A stretch of 64,000 nt of DNA from Flectonema sp. DT1601 (Eukaryota): positions 1,550,001 to 1,614,000 of the forward strand of contig OZ025786.1 of NCBI GenBank assembly GCA_964019425.1, written 5' to 3'. Every line of letters starts with the position of its first letter. Position 1 is the first letter of the stretch. Below the pieces are notes generated by a model that worked only from the letters and a program-made list of their open reading frames with translations, searched no databases and had not been told where the DNA came from. The translations under genes were made by a program, and so were the position numbers. Of the stretch, positions 15,643 through 57,968 are shown piece by piece.

Positions 15643-18600
15643 ATGTCTCTCCGACCTTCTACAGTTGGAACATACTACTCTCGTGGTGAGTGTGAACGGT
15701 ATATTCACAAAGCAATCCATCAGAAAAAGAAAGAAACTGAACCTATCACTGACAGCGTATTTAAAGCACACACAGAGAGAGGTAATAAGTTCGAAGATGA
15801 TTTAGTAAGAAAGTTAGCTTTAACAACAACCGTCATAAATGCTGAAAACGAAGAACCACTAAACAGCGAGACTATAATGCCTTTTATTAAAAAACACAAA
15901 CCGGAAGACGGCAACCCGTCAACAATATATTTTGCTCAATTCCCTTTAGCCCCTGTTACTCTTTATGGTACCTCAACAAGTAGGGCATTCCCTGACCTGT
16001 TGAGAGTTACGTATCATGAGAATGATTCGATTCACGTCACTATAATTGACATTAAAAGCAGTTCAAAGGCTAAGATTTCTCACTGGGCTCAAATAACGAC
16101 TTATCGACTTATTCTAACGAATATGATTAAGGACAGAAGTGTCGTGATATCTACATTTGGTGAGGTTTGGATTCCCTCAAATAATAAAAATAACTACTCA
16201 ATTCATGAGATGTGTTTACTAGCGACTACTGAACAGATAATTAAGTTAATAAAAACACTACCAAAAACACCAACGGAGTCATCACCGTCATGGAATCTCT
16301 CATCTACGTGTGGTGGATGTGATTACCTAAACCAGTGTCGATCTGAAGCTGAAGGTACTCTCAAAGCAATTCCGCTTCTTACAAAGGGAAGGTTTAAATC
16401 ATTAACCGACATCGAGGATTTAAATTCAAACATCCATCACGACTGTTCAACGTCGATGAGTAGCGATCTCCCTGAAACTATCTCTACTGGAATGGGTGAT
16501 GAATCAGTAATTAGAGTAGACCGACTTAATGTTGCAGAGCAACTGTCATTCAAGACTTTGAATGATAAGAACATTAGACTTCGATCTTTCAAAGAGCATC
16601 TGCTGTCAGCAGAACCTCCATCAGTTTATATTGTGATTAGCATCTTAAGAGATTACTCTGATGCTGTTGGGACGTCTAAATCATTAGTAGCAGCGGTTTT
16701 TGATGATAAAGGTGATCGATGCGAAAGTAAACAATTTGAACAAACAAACTGCAAAGAGGTACTTTCATTTTTACATAAACAAATACCATCAAATCAGTCA
16801 GTTGAGTTATACACTGCAACTGATGGAGATCGTGCGATCTTCATCACAATGTTATGTCAAGAATTCACTAACAGATCAGCAACACCTGATGAGAAGCAAA
16901 TCTTATCATATATATTCGATGCTGATACATTACACGGTCTCGGGATATATACTCCAGATCTTTTTAGAGGATTAGATACTTACAAACCTGTTTTAAGTAC
17001 TTCAGTGACATCTTCGCAATTGCAACTTATGAATTTAAGACGAGGTACTAGTGCGAAGGGTACAAAAGAGAGTTTAATGAAGAATCTGTTGTTAACTTTT
17101 GGGGAAGAAAAAACTCTGACAGAGGGCATTCAGGAAGAGTTGAGTTCATTCGACGGTCGCAATGGACTGCGAGCAGTTCCATACCTGATATCTACGATGT
17201 GTTGTCTTCCGACAGTGGGATACACGTCTGTTGATGAGTTGTATGAGTTTTTTGATGCAGACTTTCCTGCTGAGACGGAACTACTGACATCCTCACTTCA
17301 TGACATACATGGTATGCTGCAAGCTAGATGTGACTCTGCTATAAGTGTGATAGTAAGTGTCAGGGGAACCTTTCAAGAATCCTTAAAAGGAACACCTGTT
17401 TCTTCTATCAAATCTCCGCTTGAATTACCTCTTTCATTATCAAACATTGAGAGTTACAGCATCCAACGAATGATTTATTTAAAACAGCTCGCAATGAAGA
17501 CAAATTGTACCGAAGCAGTCAACGATCGCAGTACCGGTGAAGGACTCATCTCAGCAAAAATAATCGACAAAAAAAAATTAAAAATATCTATAAGTAACGG
17601 AAAGGACCTCTACGAGAAGAATAATTCTGCTTTGGAAGAGGCATTTCGAGGTGGTGCCTGGTTGGCATCGTTTGGTTCGAGTCCCGAATCGCACATCTTT
17701 TTTTCTGATGTGGCATATCATGCATACACGCAGAACAGTTCTGGATGGGTTCCAGGTGCTAATAATGAGTTTTTGTGTGTTGCTGACATTCTGCCAAAGG
17801 GAGAGAAGGCTACAGGCAGTTCATTCAAATATATCAGGGAATGGAGTTTTGAAATCGATCACGACAGCAAGTCGAAGTTAGTTTTGTATCCCGACACTTC
17901 AAACTGGAAAAAGGATCAGAGAGTTCTTAGTAGCATGTTAGATAAATTTGACTCTCTCACGCTATCAAAAAGAGTCTCTGACTTCGTGTATGATAAATCT
18001 CTTGATTCTTTATTTACGTCTGTGTGTCCAGTGAAAGGGTTTGATAAGGAAAATATATTTTGTAAAGTCTTTCAAAACAGTGTGGTCAACATCAAACCAC
18101 TAATTGGAACTCCACCAACCCCACTAAGCGAATCGGATATTCACATTTGTAAAGAAACTGAAGTACTAACAAAGTCTCAACAAGAAGCTTTCAATCATGC
18201 AATAAATAACAGATTACAGCTGGTTTGGGGACCACCAGGAACGGGTAAAACAACCTACTTGGCTCATGCGATTGCAAAGTTAGTTGAACTCAATTGGGAA
18301 TCCACTAGTTATAACATATTAGTTACAGCAGTTACTCGTGCAGCCATTAATGAATTAATCACGAAGGTTGGGAACCTATTTGAAGGGGAATGGGCAGAAC
18401 GGTGCCTCGTAGGATTTGAAGACCGAGCAGCAGATGTGAAAGGCCAACCAGTTGTTAATAAACCAATCAAAGTAGTCGGAACAACTGCTTGGCAATTAGG
18501 TTCTAAGAATTTAATTTTTCAAAGTCCATGCGACGGACAACCAAAACATTTTAAATCGGAACTTCCACAACAATTCGACTTAATTGTTATTGACGAAGGG

Positions 18601-19521
18601 TCTTTAATGGTCGTAGCAGACACTCCTCGTATTGTAAACAGTTTGGTACCTAAAACTGGAAGGCTCTTTGTTGCTGGTGATCATTTACAGCTACCTCCGA
18701 TTCAGGCTGAGGTAAAACTAAAACAGAATAACATCTGTCACACGGGATCGATCCTTTCATCTCTTATGCTGACCAGCGATGAACTCCCTATTCGTAACGC
18801 GTTTGAAACACCGAAGTTAAATCTTCATTCGTCGGTTGTTAAGTTAGTTGATAATCTTCGATCAAATGATGAAATTTGTAACTTCACGAGCAGGTTGTAT
18901 GGCTCTGATTACACTGTTCCTACTGGTCTGGGAATCTCGTTGCAGTTGAAGAGCACCCTTACAGAGCTTTCCACAGACATCGAAAACACCAACGAACTCG
19001 CAAAAGTACTCCACGACAGTCCTAATTGGAGTAAAGGAATGCTGACCGTAAAGATTATTGGTGAAGTAGGAGTGATGGATGAGGCAAACTTTATTATTCA
19101 ATTAGCTACAACTTTACGACATCTGATTGTGGGTGGTGATGAGATGGAAATATTCGCCACAGTGCCCACTAGAAAACAACGTTCATCAATCACACAGAAC
19201 AACACCACAACAGAAGTACTTTCAGATATAGACACGGTGAATAGTATGCAGGGTAGGACGTGTAATATTTCAGTTGCGGGTTATTGTTGTCCATCTCGCA
19301 CCGAATTTCTTTATGACGTCCGTCGACTTAATGTGGCACTGACTAGAGCTCGTTCTCTCAATGTGTTGGTTGTTTCTGAAACAGTCTTATCTCCTTCTGT
19401 TTCTGTGTGTGATTCTCCTAACTCAGTCCTTGGCTATCAACACCTGAGAGCCTTCGTAAATCAATCAGAAGTCATACAGGTTCAGCTCTCACCGTTCAGT
19501 GCTAAGTTCGTTACTGAGTAG
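15643..19521 (+). CDS. PD-(D/E)XK (Cas4/RecB/Dna2-like) nuclease fused to SF1 (Dna2/Upf1-like) helicase
   Basis: N-terminal C-E-R, FPDLL, IIDIK, QITTY, CGGCDYLNQC. C-terminal WGPPGTGKTT, IVIDEGS, GDHLQLPPI, NLRSN, DTVNSMQG, RRLNVALTRAR. Confidence 0.85.
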   Translation: MSLRPSTVGTYYSRGECERYIHKAIHQKKKETEPITDSVFKAHTERGNKFEDDLVRKLALTTTVINAENEEPLNSETIMPFIKKHKPEDGNPSTIYFAQFPLAPVTLYGTSTSRAFPDLLRVTYHENDSIHVTIIDIKSSSKAKISHWAQITTYRLILTNMIKDRSVVISTFGEVWIPSNNKNNYSIHEMCLLATTEQIIKLIKTLPKTPTESSPSWNLSSTCGGCDYLNQCRSEAEGTLKAIPLLTKGRFKSLTDIEDLNSNIHHDCSTSMSSDLPETISTGMGDESVIRVDRLNVAEQLSFKTLNDKNIRLRSFKEHLLSAEPPSVYIVISILRDYSDAVGTSKSLVAAVFDDKGDRCESKQFEQTNCKEVLSFLHKQIPSNQSVELYTATDGDRAIFITMLCQEFTNRSATPDEKQILSYIFDADTLHGLGIYTPDLFRGLDTYKPVLSTSVTSSQLQLMNLRRGTSAKGTKESLMKNLLLTFGEEKTLTEGIQEELSSFDGRNGLRAVPYLISTMCCLPTVGYTSVDELYEFFDADFPAETELLTSSLHDIHGMLQARCDSAISVIVSVRGTFQESLKGTPVSSIKSPLELPLSLSNIESYSIQRMIYLKQLAMKTNCTEAVNDRSTGEGLISAKIIDKKKLKISISNGKDLYEKNNSALEEAFRGGAWLASFGSSPESHIFFSDVAYHAYTQNSSGWVPGANNEFLCVADILPKGEKATGSSFKYIREWSFEIDHDSKSKLVLYPDTSNWKKDQRVLSSMLDKFDSLTLSKRVSDFVYDKSLDSLFTSVCPVKGFDKENIFCKVFQNSVVNIKPLIGTPPTPLSESDIHICKETEVLTKSQQEAFNHAINNRLQLVWGPPGTGKTTYLAHAIAKLVELNWESTSYNILVTAVTRAAINELITKVGNLFEGEWAERCLVGFEDRAADVKGQPVVNKPIKVVGTTAWQLGSKNLIFQSPCDGQPKHFKSELPQQFDLIVIDEGSLMVVADTPRIVNSLVPKTGRLFVAGDHLQLPPIQAEVKLKQNNICHTGSILSSLMLTSDELPIRNAFETPKLNLHSSVVKLVDNLRSNDEICNFTSRLYGSDYTVPTGLGISLQLKSTLTELSTDIENTNELAKVLHDSPNWSKGMLTVKIIGEVGVMDEANFIIQLATTLRHLIVGGDEMEIFATVPTRKQRSSITQNNTTTEVLSDIDTVNSMQGRTCNISVAGYCCPSRTEFLYDVRRLNVALTRARSLNVLVVSETVLSPSVSVCDSPNSVLGYQHLRAFVNQSEVIQVQLSPFSAKFVTE

Positions 19522-49566: not shown

Positions 49567-49810
49567 GGGAATTCTTTTTTTTTTTTTTCTTTTGTAAAAT
49601 TATTTTGTGCGTGTTGGGGAGAGCGTTTCGTGTTTTAACACGTCGCCTCTCTTTCTATGTCCGGGTGAAACGCTCTTATCGTTTTCAACGTGTGTATCTT
49701 ACCGTTTTGTTGTGCATTCTTTCCTCCGTTTTGACTCTTTTTTTTTTTTTTTTAGTTTTAATGTTTTTCTTTTTTCGCACACATCAACATTTGTCGGTTT
49801 TCCCCTCCCC

Positions 49811-49874
49811 TTATAATGATTCATGTCTAATTTGTTGCGTGTTAATCCTTGATTTATTTATCTAAGTCCCCCCC
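49811..49874 (+). repeat. Dispersed repeat family C, copy 1
   Basis: TTATAATGATTCATGTCTAATTTGTTGCGTGTTAATCCTTGATTTATTTATCTAAGTCCCCCC is nearly identical to 53060-53121. Confidence 0.85.
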
Positions 49875-51349: not shown

Positions 51350-52557
51350 ATGTCGAAAAAAACTCTTGCGAGGCAACTAAGATGTTGGTCTATGGGAATG
51401 GAGAGTGAAATCGTAAGTGGGAGATCAACAACAAATTGGAGACCTCGTAAAGATGCCGAACGCGATGGTAAAGTTTCAAAAACTAGTAAAATCGATGAAG
51501 CGACTGTTGGACTATTCGGGAATGACCCTAGAGGTGCTTGGGTTAAACCACCTAAAGTAGCAACACACACTGGAAAGTTAGATTCAGAGAGAAAGACTCT
51601 ATGGGAAGAAGCTCTCTACACCCAACAGCCTAACCTTATGAACGACTCAACTCATATTTTAGCTGAAGGTATCCCTGAAGCTGTTGGAGGACCTGACCCG
51701 ATGGAACATAACAAACAAGACCCTTACGTCAACTCTCGTTTTATTGGAATGTATCCATCGAGCATGAGTGAGGTTTGTGTACTTTTTTTTTCCTTACGTT
51801 TTTATTTTACAAAACCACCAAAAAAAAAAAAAAAAAAAAACAGAATCCTGGACAATACTGGAAACATATTAACTCACAAACGCTGTACTCGCACATGCTG
51901 TTTGAGCAATCAAAGAGTGCTGAGACTGACCGTTATGGAGGAGAGTTTGGTTTGCCGAAGGATGATTTCCAAACTCAAAATGGAGTTCTTCCACTGCTCT
52001 CTGCTGAAAAGTTTAGAAACTTAAAGTACCAAATTCACGAACCTATCGTGAGAGAGCTTAATGCTATCACTGACGGTGGAAAAGTAAGCCTCTTGGACAT
52101 TTTGAGACTCACCTTAGATGAGAAGAAACTGTCTATCGCATCTGCGCATTCTGCTTGGTGTACTTTTTGGGGTTCAATATACCCGAGAGGAGGTGTCTTA
52201 AGACCTGAATTTAACGAAATTATAGAACGCGATTTTGAAAGTGTCTCTGGTCTAGAAGCGGCATTTACTACTCAAGGAACTGCTTTGTATTCTAATGGAG
52301 GAGGAACTGTTTGGTTAGTATTGAATGAAGCAACTGATAAGATGGAAGTAATTTCAATTTTATCAGGACCAAAACACCCTTATCATATGAATTATAAAAT
52401 TATTGCTGCGATGATCATCACCGAAGATACAGTTAAAGGATTCGACTCATCGTCTGAGTATATCGATAGGTTTCTCAGTGTTTTTGACTACGACTATGCC
52501 TATGCATCATACTGTGAAGCGAAGGGTATTATGAAGCCAAGTTCACTTGTTTTCTAG
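51350..52557 (+). CDS. Fe/Mn superoxide-dismutase-like protein lacking metal ligands (possible mitoribosomal subunit); intron 51773-51843
   Basis: A GTTTGT...CAG intron joins two ORFs in frame. SOD-like motifs TFWGSI, IERDFES, GGGTVWLV, EYIDRF; the DxWEH motif is replaced by IITED. Confidence 0.75.
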
Positions 52558-53059: not shown

Positions 53060-53250
53060 TTATAATGACTCATGTCTAATTTGTTGCGTGTTAACCTTGA
53101 TTTATTTATCCAAGTCCCCCCTCGTGCAGTATTCTTCCCAGGTAAATCTTTTCGTATCGTATCAAAGGTCCCCCCTCGTGCAGTATTCTTCCCAGATAAA
53201 TCTTTTCGTATCGTATCAAAGGTCCCCCCTTATTTATCCAAGTCCCCCCT
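53060..53250 (+). repeat. Repeat family C copy 2 plus a 54-bp tandem duplication
   Basis: GTCCCCCCTCGTGCAGTATTCTTCCCAG(G/A)TAAATCTTTTCGTATCGTATCAAAG at 53114 and 53168; GTCCCCCC recurs at 53222 and 53242. Confidence 0.85.
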
Positions 53251-53338: not shown

Positions 53339-54106
53339 ATGAGATCTGGTAGAATAGCTCGAAATGTGAAGTTGCCTTTTTGGTTGAAATGTAGTGGACT
53401 CGTAGCTACTGTAGTGGGAACAGGTGTTTGGTATGTTAAACAATGTGGTTTACAATTTGATTGGAATGGAGGAATGTGGAGTGAAATAACAGCATGGGAA
53501 AAGAGTGGACAATATGTTTATGTCATTCCGATGGTTCACATTGGAGAAAAGAGGTTCTATGATGACGTTGTCGATGTCTGTAAGGGAAGTATTGTTTTAT
53601 TAGAAGGGATTGACATGACACCATTACCTGCTCCAATTAGAGTTGTTGTTCGATTGATTAATCAAATCATACTCATAGTTGGAATCATAGTAGTTGGTTC
53701 ATTTATTGATATCAGTAGTTTCATTCGTAGGGTTGATCCAACACCGAGGAAGTCTGTTGTTTGTCAAGAAGACTTTTTCACACCATCGGTTTGTTGTAAT
53801 TCATTTCCGATTATGTCAGATGTTCATACTACTTCAACAGCAAGTCTTATCGCAGGTCGAAATGATTATTTGATGAAGGTATTCGATACCATTCCTCGTC
53901 AGCAGTTCTTTCCAATATCAATTCCTTGGGGTGCTGCTCACACTCCAGGAATATCATCGTCCCTTAGTGAGAGGGGATACTCTCCTGTGGGGGTGAGATA
54001 TATCAGAATCGGATCGATTTCAGAACTTATTTCACACTTATTTCGAATGACTCAATCAAGGTTAGAAAACCGTAACGTGATTCCTATGCGGGTTACGATG
54101 TGTTGA
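53339..54106 (+). CDS. Uncharacterised protein, TraB/GumN-like motifs
   Basis: VIPMVHIG, VLLEG, RND, IPWGAAHTPGI; two hydrophobic segments. Confidence 0.65.
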   Translation: MRSGRIARNVKLPFWLKCSGLVATVVGTGVWYVKQCGLQFDWNGGMWSEITAWEKSGQYVYVIPMVHIGEKRFYDDVVDVCKGSIVLLEGIDMTPLPAPIRVVVRLINQIILIVGIIVVGSFIDISSFIRRVDPTPRKSVVCQEDFFTPSVCCNSFPIMSDVHTTSTASLIAGRNDYLMKVFDTIPRQQFFPISIPWGAAHTPGISSSLSERGYSPVGVRYIRIGSISELISHLFRMTQSRLENRNVIPMRVTMC

Positions 54107-54140: not shown

Positions 54141-54405
54141 CAATTGGGAGGTTTCTTGCCTGCTTTCCATTTATAAAAAAAAAAAAAAATAATATAGAAT
54201 AAAATCATTTGATACTACTACTTGGTAAAGAAGATTAAAATTATTATTTTTTTTATTCTTTTATAGAACAGAGCAATTTTCATCCAACGGCAATCATGTC
54301 TACCGACAACAATTATACTAACAGCGCCAAACCATATGCAAGTGATTCTTTTAACCTCATTGTACTTCACCCCTCAGGAATTAGTACAAAGCAGAGCAAC
54401 CAATC

Positions 54406-56655
54406 ATGTCAACGGAATTAGTCTCTGCGATGACTAACACTGTTCGCAGATGTCTCGAAAATGGCAAACCTGGTCCAACAAAAATAATACTAAATAACTT
54501 ACTGTATGAAAGATGCAGTGCTAGCGGTACCAGAGGAAAACAATACGCAAAAGTGATAAAAAAAATAGCTGAAGAACTGCAACAGGGAGTAGATGAAGGC
54601 ATAAAAGGAAATGATAAAAGTAATATAAAATTCGTATTGAAGTTAATTGAAGGTATAACACAAGATAGGAGATCACTCCTTCCTCATAAAGACTTCATTC
54701 TTCGTACAATACAGCCTTCAATAGACAGTGAACACAATATAACCTCACCAGAGACTACCGACTGCACACTACCTCCGAATCTTTTATCGAATCGATTTGG
54801 TTATGAACGCTGCAGGGGAGATGAGTTTCAGGTACATGCATTATCTAAGGACAACGACGATGAAGAATACACGAAGATTAAAAACTTCGTAGAAGAGAGT
54901 AATGTGCACAATTTAGCTCTTCAAGTTGTTGCGATCGAGAAAGTGTTCAATCCTGAGTTGGAGAAGGATTATCAAAAGCTTAAATTATCACTCAACGATC
55001 CAGATCCATCAGCTGTTGAATATTCATTTCACGGAACAAATGTTACAAACATTGAAAGTATTGCAAAGTATGGATTTCATCCACCGACACATCCATCTCT
55101 GTTATACGGAATGGGAATTTATTTTGCATCAAACAGCAGTAAATGCGTTTGGTTCGTCGAGCCATGGGACATCGATGCCCTTCAAAATATTACTGAGCCA
55201 TACACTTGGCCAGGAGTTCCTCAGCAGCTGGTCGTTGCTGAACTCGCAGTTGGTAATTACAAAGAAGTTTGTTTTTATTTTTTATTTTTTTTATTTATTA
55301 TTTATTACTTCACTCATCCTATGTTAAAATTATAAAAAAAAAAAAACACACAATTACACAATTAGGTTCAGTCTCCCACACCTGATGAAACACAAGAATC
55401 ACTTTTAAAAGAAGGCTACGACTCAATAAAAGCCATCGCTAATTCACAACATAAAAAAGGATGTCGATACGAAGAATGGGTAGTCTACAACCCAAAACAG
55501 GCATTCCCTCGTTATATTGTTCATTATCGAAAAACACACATGCCTCTTGATTCAAAGGATCCTACTTTTGACGTTTCAACCAATAAATGGATTGAAACAA
55601 CAAAAACAAAAATTCGCAGTAAAAAAACTAACGAAGTCGGATTGGTGATTGGAAAATTCATGCCGATTCATGAGGGACACGTCAGTCTAATTGAAACAGC
55701 GAAGAGTGAAAGTGAAAAAGTTGTTATAATAGTTTGCGACAACGGAGACAAAAACATCATAACTGGAAGGAAGAGGGTCAGATTAATTAAAGAACTATTC
55801 CCATCAAATAGAATACAAATCGTCCTCAGATTAGACATGACAGAATACAATTTACCATCTGAATGCGTCACTGAAGATGAATGGAAAAGATGGTCATCGA
55901 AGTTAATAAATATTTGTGAAGATCAAGGATTTGGAGCACCGAATTGTATATTCGGTGGAGAACAGTACGTTTCAACTTTATCAAAACACATGAACATATC
56001 TTCTCATGTAGTTGAAAGAAATGATCCAAAGCAGACTACCGTCGTCAGCGCAACTGAGGTTAGAGAATCTCCAATTACTTCGTTTGAAAAGATTCCACAA
56101 TCAGTAAAAAGAGACATGGCAAAAAGGGTTGTATTATTTGGATCAGAATCCGTGGGAAAGACGACCATGGCTAAACAACTTGCGAATAAATATAACTGCT
56201 GTTGGGTTCCTGAGGGAGCTCGTAGAATTCTCGGTGATGTACAAGTGACGAATATTTCACAAATGGAGTTCATTGCTGCTGAACAGCTGCGAAGCGAAGA
56301 TCACATCTGCGCTTACAACAACTCACCAATTGTGTTCTGTGATACCGACTTAGTAGTCACAACTGTCTATGCTGATTACTACTTTCCTAATGAGTGTCCT
56401 GATTGGATTCGTCATGCTGCTGAACAACGACAGTATTCACTTTATTTATTCTTATCTTGTGAGGTTCCCTGGGTATCAGATCCACTCAGAGATCTTTCAG
56501 GTTCATTACGATTGGAGATGGAAACTAAATTCAAATCAGCATTAACAACCAAAACAAATATAAATCCAACTCGTGTTGTTTACATTACTGGTTCTGATTG
56601 GGAAGGCAGATTCAATCAGGCAGTAGTCGCAATTGATGACCTGCTAAGCTCTTAA
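54406..56655 (+). CDS. PARP-type ADP-ribosyltransferase fused to NadR-like NMN adenylyltransferase/ribosylnicotinamide kinase (exons 54406-55266, 55366-56655; ~716 aa)
   Basis: Exon 1 has FHGT and YGMGIYFASNSSK. After a GTTTGT...TTAG intron, exon 2 reads GYDSI...YEEWVVYNPKQAFPRYIVHY and runs without a stop into GKFMPIHEGH, VSATEVR, VVLFGSESVGKTT, PEGAR, FCDTD, WVSDPLR. Confidence 0.85.
55267..55365 (+). other. Spliceosomal intron within the PARP domain
   Basis: GTTTGT donor; T-rich then A-rich body; TTAG acceptor (alternative in-frame CAG at 55369-55371); phase 0; contains the in-frame stop that ends ORF 54406-55335. Confidence 0.85.
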
Positions 56656-57347: not shown

Positions 57348-57968
57348 ATGTCTAAATGTGACTCTCTCAACCCACAAAGAGAACCTCCCAGGCAGGATGA
57401 GCAGTATATACATATTTGTTATCCCATAATACAGCTTTATGCGAAATGTAGGGGAGAAAATGGATTTGCGAAATCTGAAGAACAGGTGAGCGATCCATGG
57501 CAGCACTCAACCACAGGAAATTTTGGCACCACGAAAGGAAAGCTTTTGGAAATGTCAGGAATTGGAAAAGGTCAGCAAACATTTCTCAGTGATACAATGC
57601 ATTTATTAAATCCTGATGTATCATCGGGGGTATCAGGCAAGCAAAGAAAGGATCCATGCTCAGACTACTATTCCGAAATGTTAAGTTGTAAGGAGAGTAT
57701 GCCTAACCTTAGAGGACGTGTCGATACCTGGAAACCACCTCCCAATCACGAACTATGTAATCTATTAAATAAACGTCTTATGAAATGTCTTCAATCAAAA
57801 GGAAGTACTACGATGTGTGTAACTGAAATAGGAGATGTCAATTCCAACAGGTGTCGTGAATCTGCGTTTGCCCGACAAGAGCTTCCTGAACGACACCAAT
57901 ACCTCGGCTCCACTATTGATGCCACTAGTATGCCGACAGAGAGAAACCATGGAAATATTATTATATAA
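57348..57968 (+). CDS. Hypothetical protein with two CX9C motifs
   Basis: CSDYYSEMLSC and CNLLNKRLMKC. Confidence 0.65.
   Translation: MSKCDSLNPQREPPRQDEQYIHICYPIIQLYAKCRGENGFAKSEEQVSDPWQHSTTGNFGTTKGKLLEMSGIGKGQQTFLSDTMHLLNPDVSSGVSGKQRKDPCSDYYSEMLSCKESMPNLRGRVDTWKPPPNHELCNLLNKRLMKCLQSKGSTTMCVTEIGDVNSNRCRESAFARQELPERHQYLGSTIDATSMPTERNHGNIII

Follow-up and report, generated by a model that had tools for sequence, protein, structure and literature searches.

The 64,000-nucleotide stretch of DNA from the marine single-celled eukaryote Flectonema sp. DT1601 analysed here as a whole (contig OZ025786.1, in the following the window) contains one spliced gene in which a PARP-type ADP-ribosyltransferase is fused to a NadR. 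The spliced product of 716 amino acids comprises a helical N-terminal domain, a PARP domain, a short linker and an HTH-less NadR, and the catalytic motifs are intact across all three enzyme domains. The architecture is real and apparently undescribed, it unites two known enzyme types, and it was seen in two species, the second instance being the ortholog P0002. By analogy with known systems, the protein likely works as a self-fuelling ADP-ribosyltransferase, its PARP half drawing on NAD+ that the NadR half makes on the spot; we assign this reading a probability of about 0.52. The features of the locus are as follows.

54296..54421, + strand: upstream ORF of 41 codons, out of frame, overlapping the start codon; possible acceptors for trans-splicing at 54266 and 54377
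54406..55266, + strand: coding exon 1 (aa 1-287); start agrees with the N-terminus of the complete ortholog P0002
54406..54720, + strand: all-helical domain at the N-terminus (aa 1-105) with five helices predicted; model pLDDT 62.6
54862..55266, + strand: first part of the PARP catalytic domain, carrying H209 (55030), Y239 (55120) and K246 (55141); PF00644 E 1e-14
55267..55365, + strand: intron of 99 nt, phase 0, GT-AG, T-rich then A-rich, with two in-frame stops
55366..56655, + strand: coding exon 2 (aa 288-716 and stop); 73% identity to P0002 over 100% of its length
55366..55530, + strand: PARP catalytic domain, last strands, with the putative catalytic E324 (55474); PF00644 positions 158-198 and tankyrase-1 alignment
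55534..55638, + strand: linker of ~35 aa; a separately called ORF begins at its M346 (55540)
55639..56118, + strand: NMN-adenylyltransferase domain with GKFxP, HxGH (H389 at 55669, H392 at 55678) and W463; PF01467 E 7.6e-7
56125..56652, + strand: nicotinamide-riboside (NR) kinase with Walker A at 56140, E570, DTD at 56341 and R662; PF13521 E 5.2e-28

Two long forward-strand frames are present at the locus, 54385-55335 and 55366-56655. With 55267-55365 excised, 716 codons free of stops are obtained, exon 2 being open as far as 56653. The intron begins with GTTTGT, ends with TTAG and has a GC content of 15%. In the Pfam analysis, exon 1 matched PF00644 positions 2-120 and the opening 55 codons of exon 2 matched positions 158-198, so the PARP domain is interrupted by the intron and its C-terminus lies upstream of ATG 55540, as the sequence-only reading had proposed. 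Four in-frame donor/acceptor pairs at the locus passed a strict filter, and 55267/55365 alone agrees with P0002 without a gap. The coordinates suggested earlier for a 99-nt phase-0 intron joining the two ORFs hold. The same intron style recurs in five other introns of the + strand, three of them with the GTTTGT donor, and in one further candidate. The earlier count of eight matching introns was not reproduced, which is no contradiction since the filter was strict. According to the accessible part of PMC12621601, introns in most diplonemids studied are of the canonical GT-AG type, their medians being 41-107 nt.

P0002 was the single fusion among 40 matches obtained with exon 2 in a search of proteins of 235-751 aa. 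It is a complete ORF of 719 aa on a transcript assembled with Trinity, which EukProt labels as the diplonemid Flectonema neradi, and carries both PF00644 and PF13521. It is identical to the spliced protein at 490/716 positions, collinear from residue 1 and gap-free at the junction. The fusion is thus one ORF in the relative, which gives independent, though not direct, support for the splice in Flectonema sp. DT1601. Identities amount to 159/210 in the PARP domain, 116/163 in the adenylyltransferase and 132/178 in the kinase; judged by these values, the PARP and NadR halves have diverged about equally between the two species. For aa 1-135 the identity is 65/135, and for the linker (aa 346-375) 18/30.

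These data also bear on a reading as two genes, or as an artefactual join, in which the PARP is truncated and the NadR stands alone, beginning at 55540. An automated caller does give separate proteins of 309 and 371 aa, and M346 is conserved. However, the truncated PARP would be without its catalytic strand, the ortholog is one complete ORF, and the interval from the acceptor to 55540 contains three ATGs that are out of frame, which leaves two separate genes highly improbable.

The neighbouring genes are eukaryotic (TFIIB/BRF1, protein kinase, RING, ubiquitin-C2, UCH, IPP-2 and LYR), and all long genes of the window are located on one strand. Together with the intron, these neighbours exclude bacterial contamination. 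The flanking ORFs 53339-54106 (255 aa) and 57348-57968 (206 aa) gave no significant Pfam match. Elsewhere in the window, 51350-52557 holds an Fe/Mn superoxide dismutase-like gene whose intron measures 71 nt (51773-51843) and whose long N-terminal part has no Pfam match, and 15643-19518 encodes a superfamily-1 helicase of 1,292 aa, likewise with a long N-terminal part that carries no annotation. Two non-coding stretches, at about 49810-49865 and 53060-53240, resemble each other and stood out as near-identical frames; a local direct repeat, about 55 nt long, lies within 53120-53240. Directly upstream of the fusion gene, pyrimidine-rich AG sites lie before (54266) and after (54377) the ATG of the short upstream ORF. 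Since these candidate sites flank that ATG, the choice between them in trans-splicing could control translation.

Exon 1 alone scores 55 bits against PF00644, and P0002 72.1 bits over model positions 2-198 of 199, compared to a curated cut-off of 26.7. The triad H209, Y239 and E324 is present in both species and aligns with tankyrase-1 and seven bacterial or phage PARPs; the coordinates predicted for it (H 55030, Y 55120, E 55474) were all reproduced. Common to the seven bacterial or phage PARPs are H209, G210, Y239, K246, E324 and Y328. The strand bearing E324 aligns with the EYVIY strand of tankyrase-1, with E324 at the position of its Glu, which we take to be the catalytic residue. The closest PDB sequences are PARP10, the tankyrases, PARP2 and PARP14/15, all of them weak matches (E about 1e-6 to 1e-4 for tankyrase-1/2 and PARP10/14/15). 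The H-Y-E motif and the catalytic role of the Glu of the EYVIY strand are defined in the portion of PMC1266365 available.

Regarding the fold, the predicted structure gave a Foldseek E of 2e-12 to PARP2, with PARP2 and tankyrase entries at about 1e-12 to 1e-11; E. coli NadR was matched at 2.7e-12. Against catalytic-only targets the TM values of the model were 0.65-0.71, at a low overall confidence (pLDDT 48.7; about 55-77 in the core strands). The look-alikes found in the atlas, at 0.95-0.96, are clusters of PF00644; those with a recorded origin are eukaryotic, which is not a guide to the range of the family. The atlas query with the whole protein returned no usable match. By profile, triad and predicted fold the domain is assigned to the PARP family (ARTD). 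The H-Y-E triad does not separate mono- from poly-ADP-ribosylation, and the finer features are mixed: the FYG-type motif ahead of Y239 is PARP10-like, E324 and K246 are tankyrase-like. Neither exon 1 nor P0002 showed a Pfam match to the WGR and zinc-finger domains of the DNA-dependent PARP1/2/3, the catalytic domain is preceded by no more than about 150 residues, and Pfam matches to ankyrin and SAM (tankyrase) or macro domains were likewise not obtained. Sequence similarity is too low for an assignment to a PARP clade.

In structure comparisons of the predicted model, the N-terminal domain reached a best Z of 9.8, among generic helical solenoids, and no Foldseek match at E<=0.001. A CID-like identity was considered and is unsupported, its Z of 8.7 at an rmsd of 5.5 being level with generic helical folds. 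As regards a regulatory helical domain, such as precedes the catalytic domain in the DNA-dependent PARP1/2/3, the N-terminal domain is helical but resembles generic helical folds only, and Pfam gave no PARP_reg match. A targeting or interaction module is the likely role of this domain.

The NadR half exceeds the cut-offs of both of its Pfam families, with 29.8 bits for PF01467 (cut-off 21) and 98.7 bits for PF13521 (cut-off 27), so that, together with PF00644, each half of the protein matches the profile expected for it in the initial reading. TIGR01526 is matched at E 9.3e-57 over model positions 2-324 of 325, with 192.7 bits against a cut-off of 341.15, and NF005988 with 144.6 bits, below its cut-off of 201, starting at model position 60. 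This half is NadR-like by its motifs and, by these scores, a divergent module and not an equivalog. Both species retain every one of the 10 invariant NadR columns, and the HxGH and P-loop motifs already recognized from the letters alone are intact. Among the strongly conserved columns (>=80%, i.e. at least that share of 75 relatives), 41/56 are kept in both species and 15 differ.

Among solved structures, the closest relative is phage Bas30_86 (9x6f, E 2e-30), which converts NR to NAD+ according to the available part of PMC13464706. Its residues K10, F11 and H18, of which K10 and H18 are key, align with K384, F385 and H392, and a serine stands at the position of D275, a predicted residue of the NR pocket. 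Other than P0002, the relatives are 25-39% identical and, where a source is named, bacterial or viral. The HTH repressor domain of the trifunctional enterobacterial NadR was not found; the PARP domain occupies its place.

In the NadR tree the two diplonemid sequences form a clade (SH-aLRT 100) on a stem of 1.3 changes per site. The tree was a quick one; its 154 rows comprised these two sequences, 115 full-length NadRs drawn from 159 loci and 37 top matches, and it gave no supported sister group or donor. The bacterial and phage relatives bear out the prokaryotic affinity behind the earlier suggestion of a horizontally acquired NadR, but the tree does not name the source. At 0.31, the GC3 of the NadR part equals that of 10 neighbours (0.31-0.36), thus no sign of a recent transfer is seen. 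The gain appears to be old, and horizontal transfer is what we infer from the distribution of the sequences. A horizontally acquired nadR would have joined a resident PARP gene in a diplonemid ancestor, which is the likely point of origin of the fusion.

The long stem and the 15 changed columns could also be expected if the NadR half were mainly a sensor that binds NMN, NAD+ or ATP, switches the PARP and so reports the NAD+ state. In enterobacterial NadR the same domains sense NAD+ on behalf of its DNA-binding domain, which provides a precedent, and the conserved linker (18/30) would suit such coupling. The catalytic motifs of both NadR domains are nevertheless intact in both species, as for an active enzyme, and we regard a sensor as unlikely.

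Searches for further instances, within the scope given here, turned up no third PARP-NadR fusion. With the PARP region of P0002, only P0002 itself was returned among proteins of 395-1259 aa, and only the window's own ORF among those of 30-394 aa. Twelve longer proteins scanned from the best 150 of 3,683 representative NadR matches contained no PARP fusion. Pattern scans of metagenome and viral contigs found no relative, although introns or divergence can defeat such scans, and 0/801 phage records covered 80% of P0002. PF00644 occurs in 3/50 bacterial genomes and 1/50 viral records carrying these NadRs. A PARP near nadR was not detected in 7,277 frames at 159 NadR loci (best E 0.4, with a weak two-sequence profile). 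Overall, a prokaryotic PARP-NadR neighbourhood was not found in the genomes, records and loci searched. In that viral record (L163, G091) the PARP (PF00644 E 6.8e-22) is separated from the NadR by about 30 kb. In a record named as a giant-virus MAG, positions 966-1493 of locus L136 match the NadR kinase half only and may encode an unrelated P-loop kinase. For eukaryotic viruses, PMC9503650 reported that NAD+ salvage was absent.

The suspicion that the fusion was new also agrees with the literature: a full-text search, with subscription papers mostly outside its range, retrieved no PARP-NadR or PARP-NMNAT fusion. NadR, NMNAT and adenylyltransferase are absent from the main text, as far as accessible, of the eukaryotic PARP surveys PMC4245714 and PMC2964712. 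The available portion of PMC9503650 covers NadR in phages and NadM-Nudix fusions and does not describe PARP-NadR, NadR is not mentioned in the text or the seven supplements of PMC10161547, and the accessible part of PMC7052976 has no relevant passage.

Fusions of NadR as such are not exceptional among proteins of prokaryotic type. Among the best 150 of the 3,683 relatives, partners were a methyltransferase, an NRPS-like A-T-R module (twice), PnuC and further adenylyltransferase domains. The fusion proteins observed are P0127, P0128, P0070, P0087 and P0077, and one of the two A-T-R cases is from Legionella. This readiness to fuse, the expanded PARP families of diplonemids and the common orientation of the long genes in the window are all compatible with an incidental merger of neighbours in a one-directional cluster, after which the domains would serve the bulk cell independently. 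Yet the fusion, the linker and the three domains were kept despite a residue difference of about 32% between the species, and an NAD+ maker joined to an NAD+ user is a non-random pair. An incidental origin is hence rather improbable in our assessment.

For the self-fuelling ADP-ribosyltransferase we counted the fusion and the intact motifs in both species and the similar conservation of the halves; against it, the 15/56 changed NadR columns including the serine at the D275 position. In the proposed sequence of events, the kinase would convert nicotinamide riboside to NMN and the adenylyltransferase NMN and ATP to NAD+, which the PARP domain, ~35 residues away, would spend locally on ADP-ribosylating targets chosen by the N-terminal domain. 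The released nicotinamide would return to NMN via a separate NAMPT; this enzyme is needed in trans because NadR starts from NR or NMN and not from nicotinamide.

According to supplement 5 of PMC10161547, four diplonemids possess 2-3 NMNAT genes each and expanded PARP families, and NAMPT and a NadD are diplonemid gains. A closed recycling loop is therefore possible, as other diplonemids have NAMPT, and a housekeeping need for NadR is unlikely, as the four already have NMNAT, NadD and NAMPT. In mammals, NMNAT1 feeds PARP1 locally, as stated in the accessible parts of PMC8003356 and PMC13515651. With only two species the retention of the fusion is weakly tested, and fusion need not mean coupling since NAD+ diffuses.

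The NadR half could instead replenish the cell's bulk NAD+ under stress or infection, with a PARP that is minor or NAD-hydrolysing and sets the turnover. The precedent is phage NARP3, in which, following the available part of PMC13464706, an HTH-less NadR restores NAD+ depleted by Sir2-HerA. Several other NAD+ synthases are present in other diplonemids, however, and no PnuC-like transporter family (PF04973) was matched among 30 ORFs/exons of the window scanned, so we consider this buffer quite improbable. By analogy with NARP3, the fusion might also have a stress or defence role. A PARP proof against NAD depletion, in which a phage-type HTH-less NadR is wired to an ADP-ribosylating effector, makes its own NAD+ from NR or NMN and keeps it working when a virus or bacterial symbiont drains NAD+, is a doubtful but conceivable form of it.

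Such a depletion-proof PARP, if true, would be the first single-chain system channelling NAD+ from a synthase to a PARP. The local use of PARP-adjacent NAD+ has so far been argued from separate NMNAT1 and PARP1 in complex settings; a natural fusion of 716 residues makes the question testable in vitro. The fusion adds a bacterial-type NadR to eukaryotes, with a breadth of two species so far, and fits the reported diplonemid gain of NAD+ salvage and PARP genes. If working, it could serve as a one-pot tool for ADP-ribosylation from NR analogues.

Of the known systems, mammalian NMNAT1-PARP1 offers the functional parallel: an NMN adenylyltransferase acts beside a PARP and is thought to supply NAD+ locally (PMC8003356 and PMC13515651, in the parts available). 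There the two are separate proteins, whereas here they form one chain, the synthase is of the bacterial NadR type with an additional NR kinase, and the PARP is without zinc-finger, BRCT and WGR matches. The HTH-less NadRs (Bas30_86 9x6f, Haemophilus 1lw7, 6gye) and E. coli 8x7f share NMNAT and RNK domains, HxGH, Walker A and DTD with the present protein, the solved relatives being matched at E 2e-30 to 8e-21. In contrast to these, the module described here is eukaryotic, stands behind a PARP, sits on a long branch and scores below the TIGR01526 cut-off. From phage NARP3 it differs by the eukaryotic context and by having no adjacent PnuC (PF04973) among the 30 window ORFs/exons scanned. Tankyrase-1/2 and PARP10/14/15 are the best PDB sequence matches, with H-Y-E as in tankyrase, but ankyrin, SAM, macro and WWE matches are missing here and the catalytic domain is central instead of C-terminal. 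Closest in principle, as a maker and a consumer of NAD+ in one chain, is NadM-Nudix, which in the accessible part of PMC9503650 is prokaryotic and phage-borne and has a pyrophosphatase as its consumer, not an ADP-ribosyltransferase.
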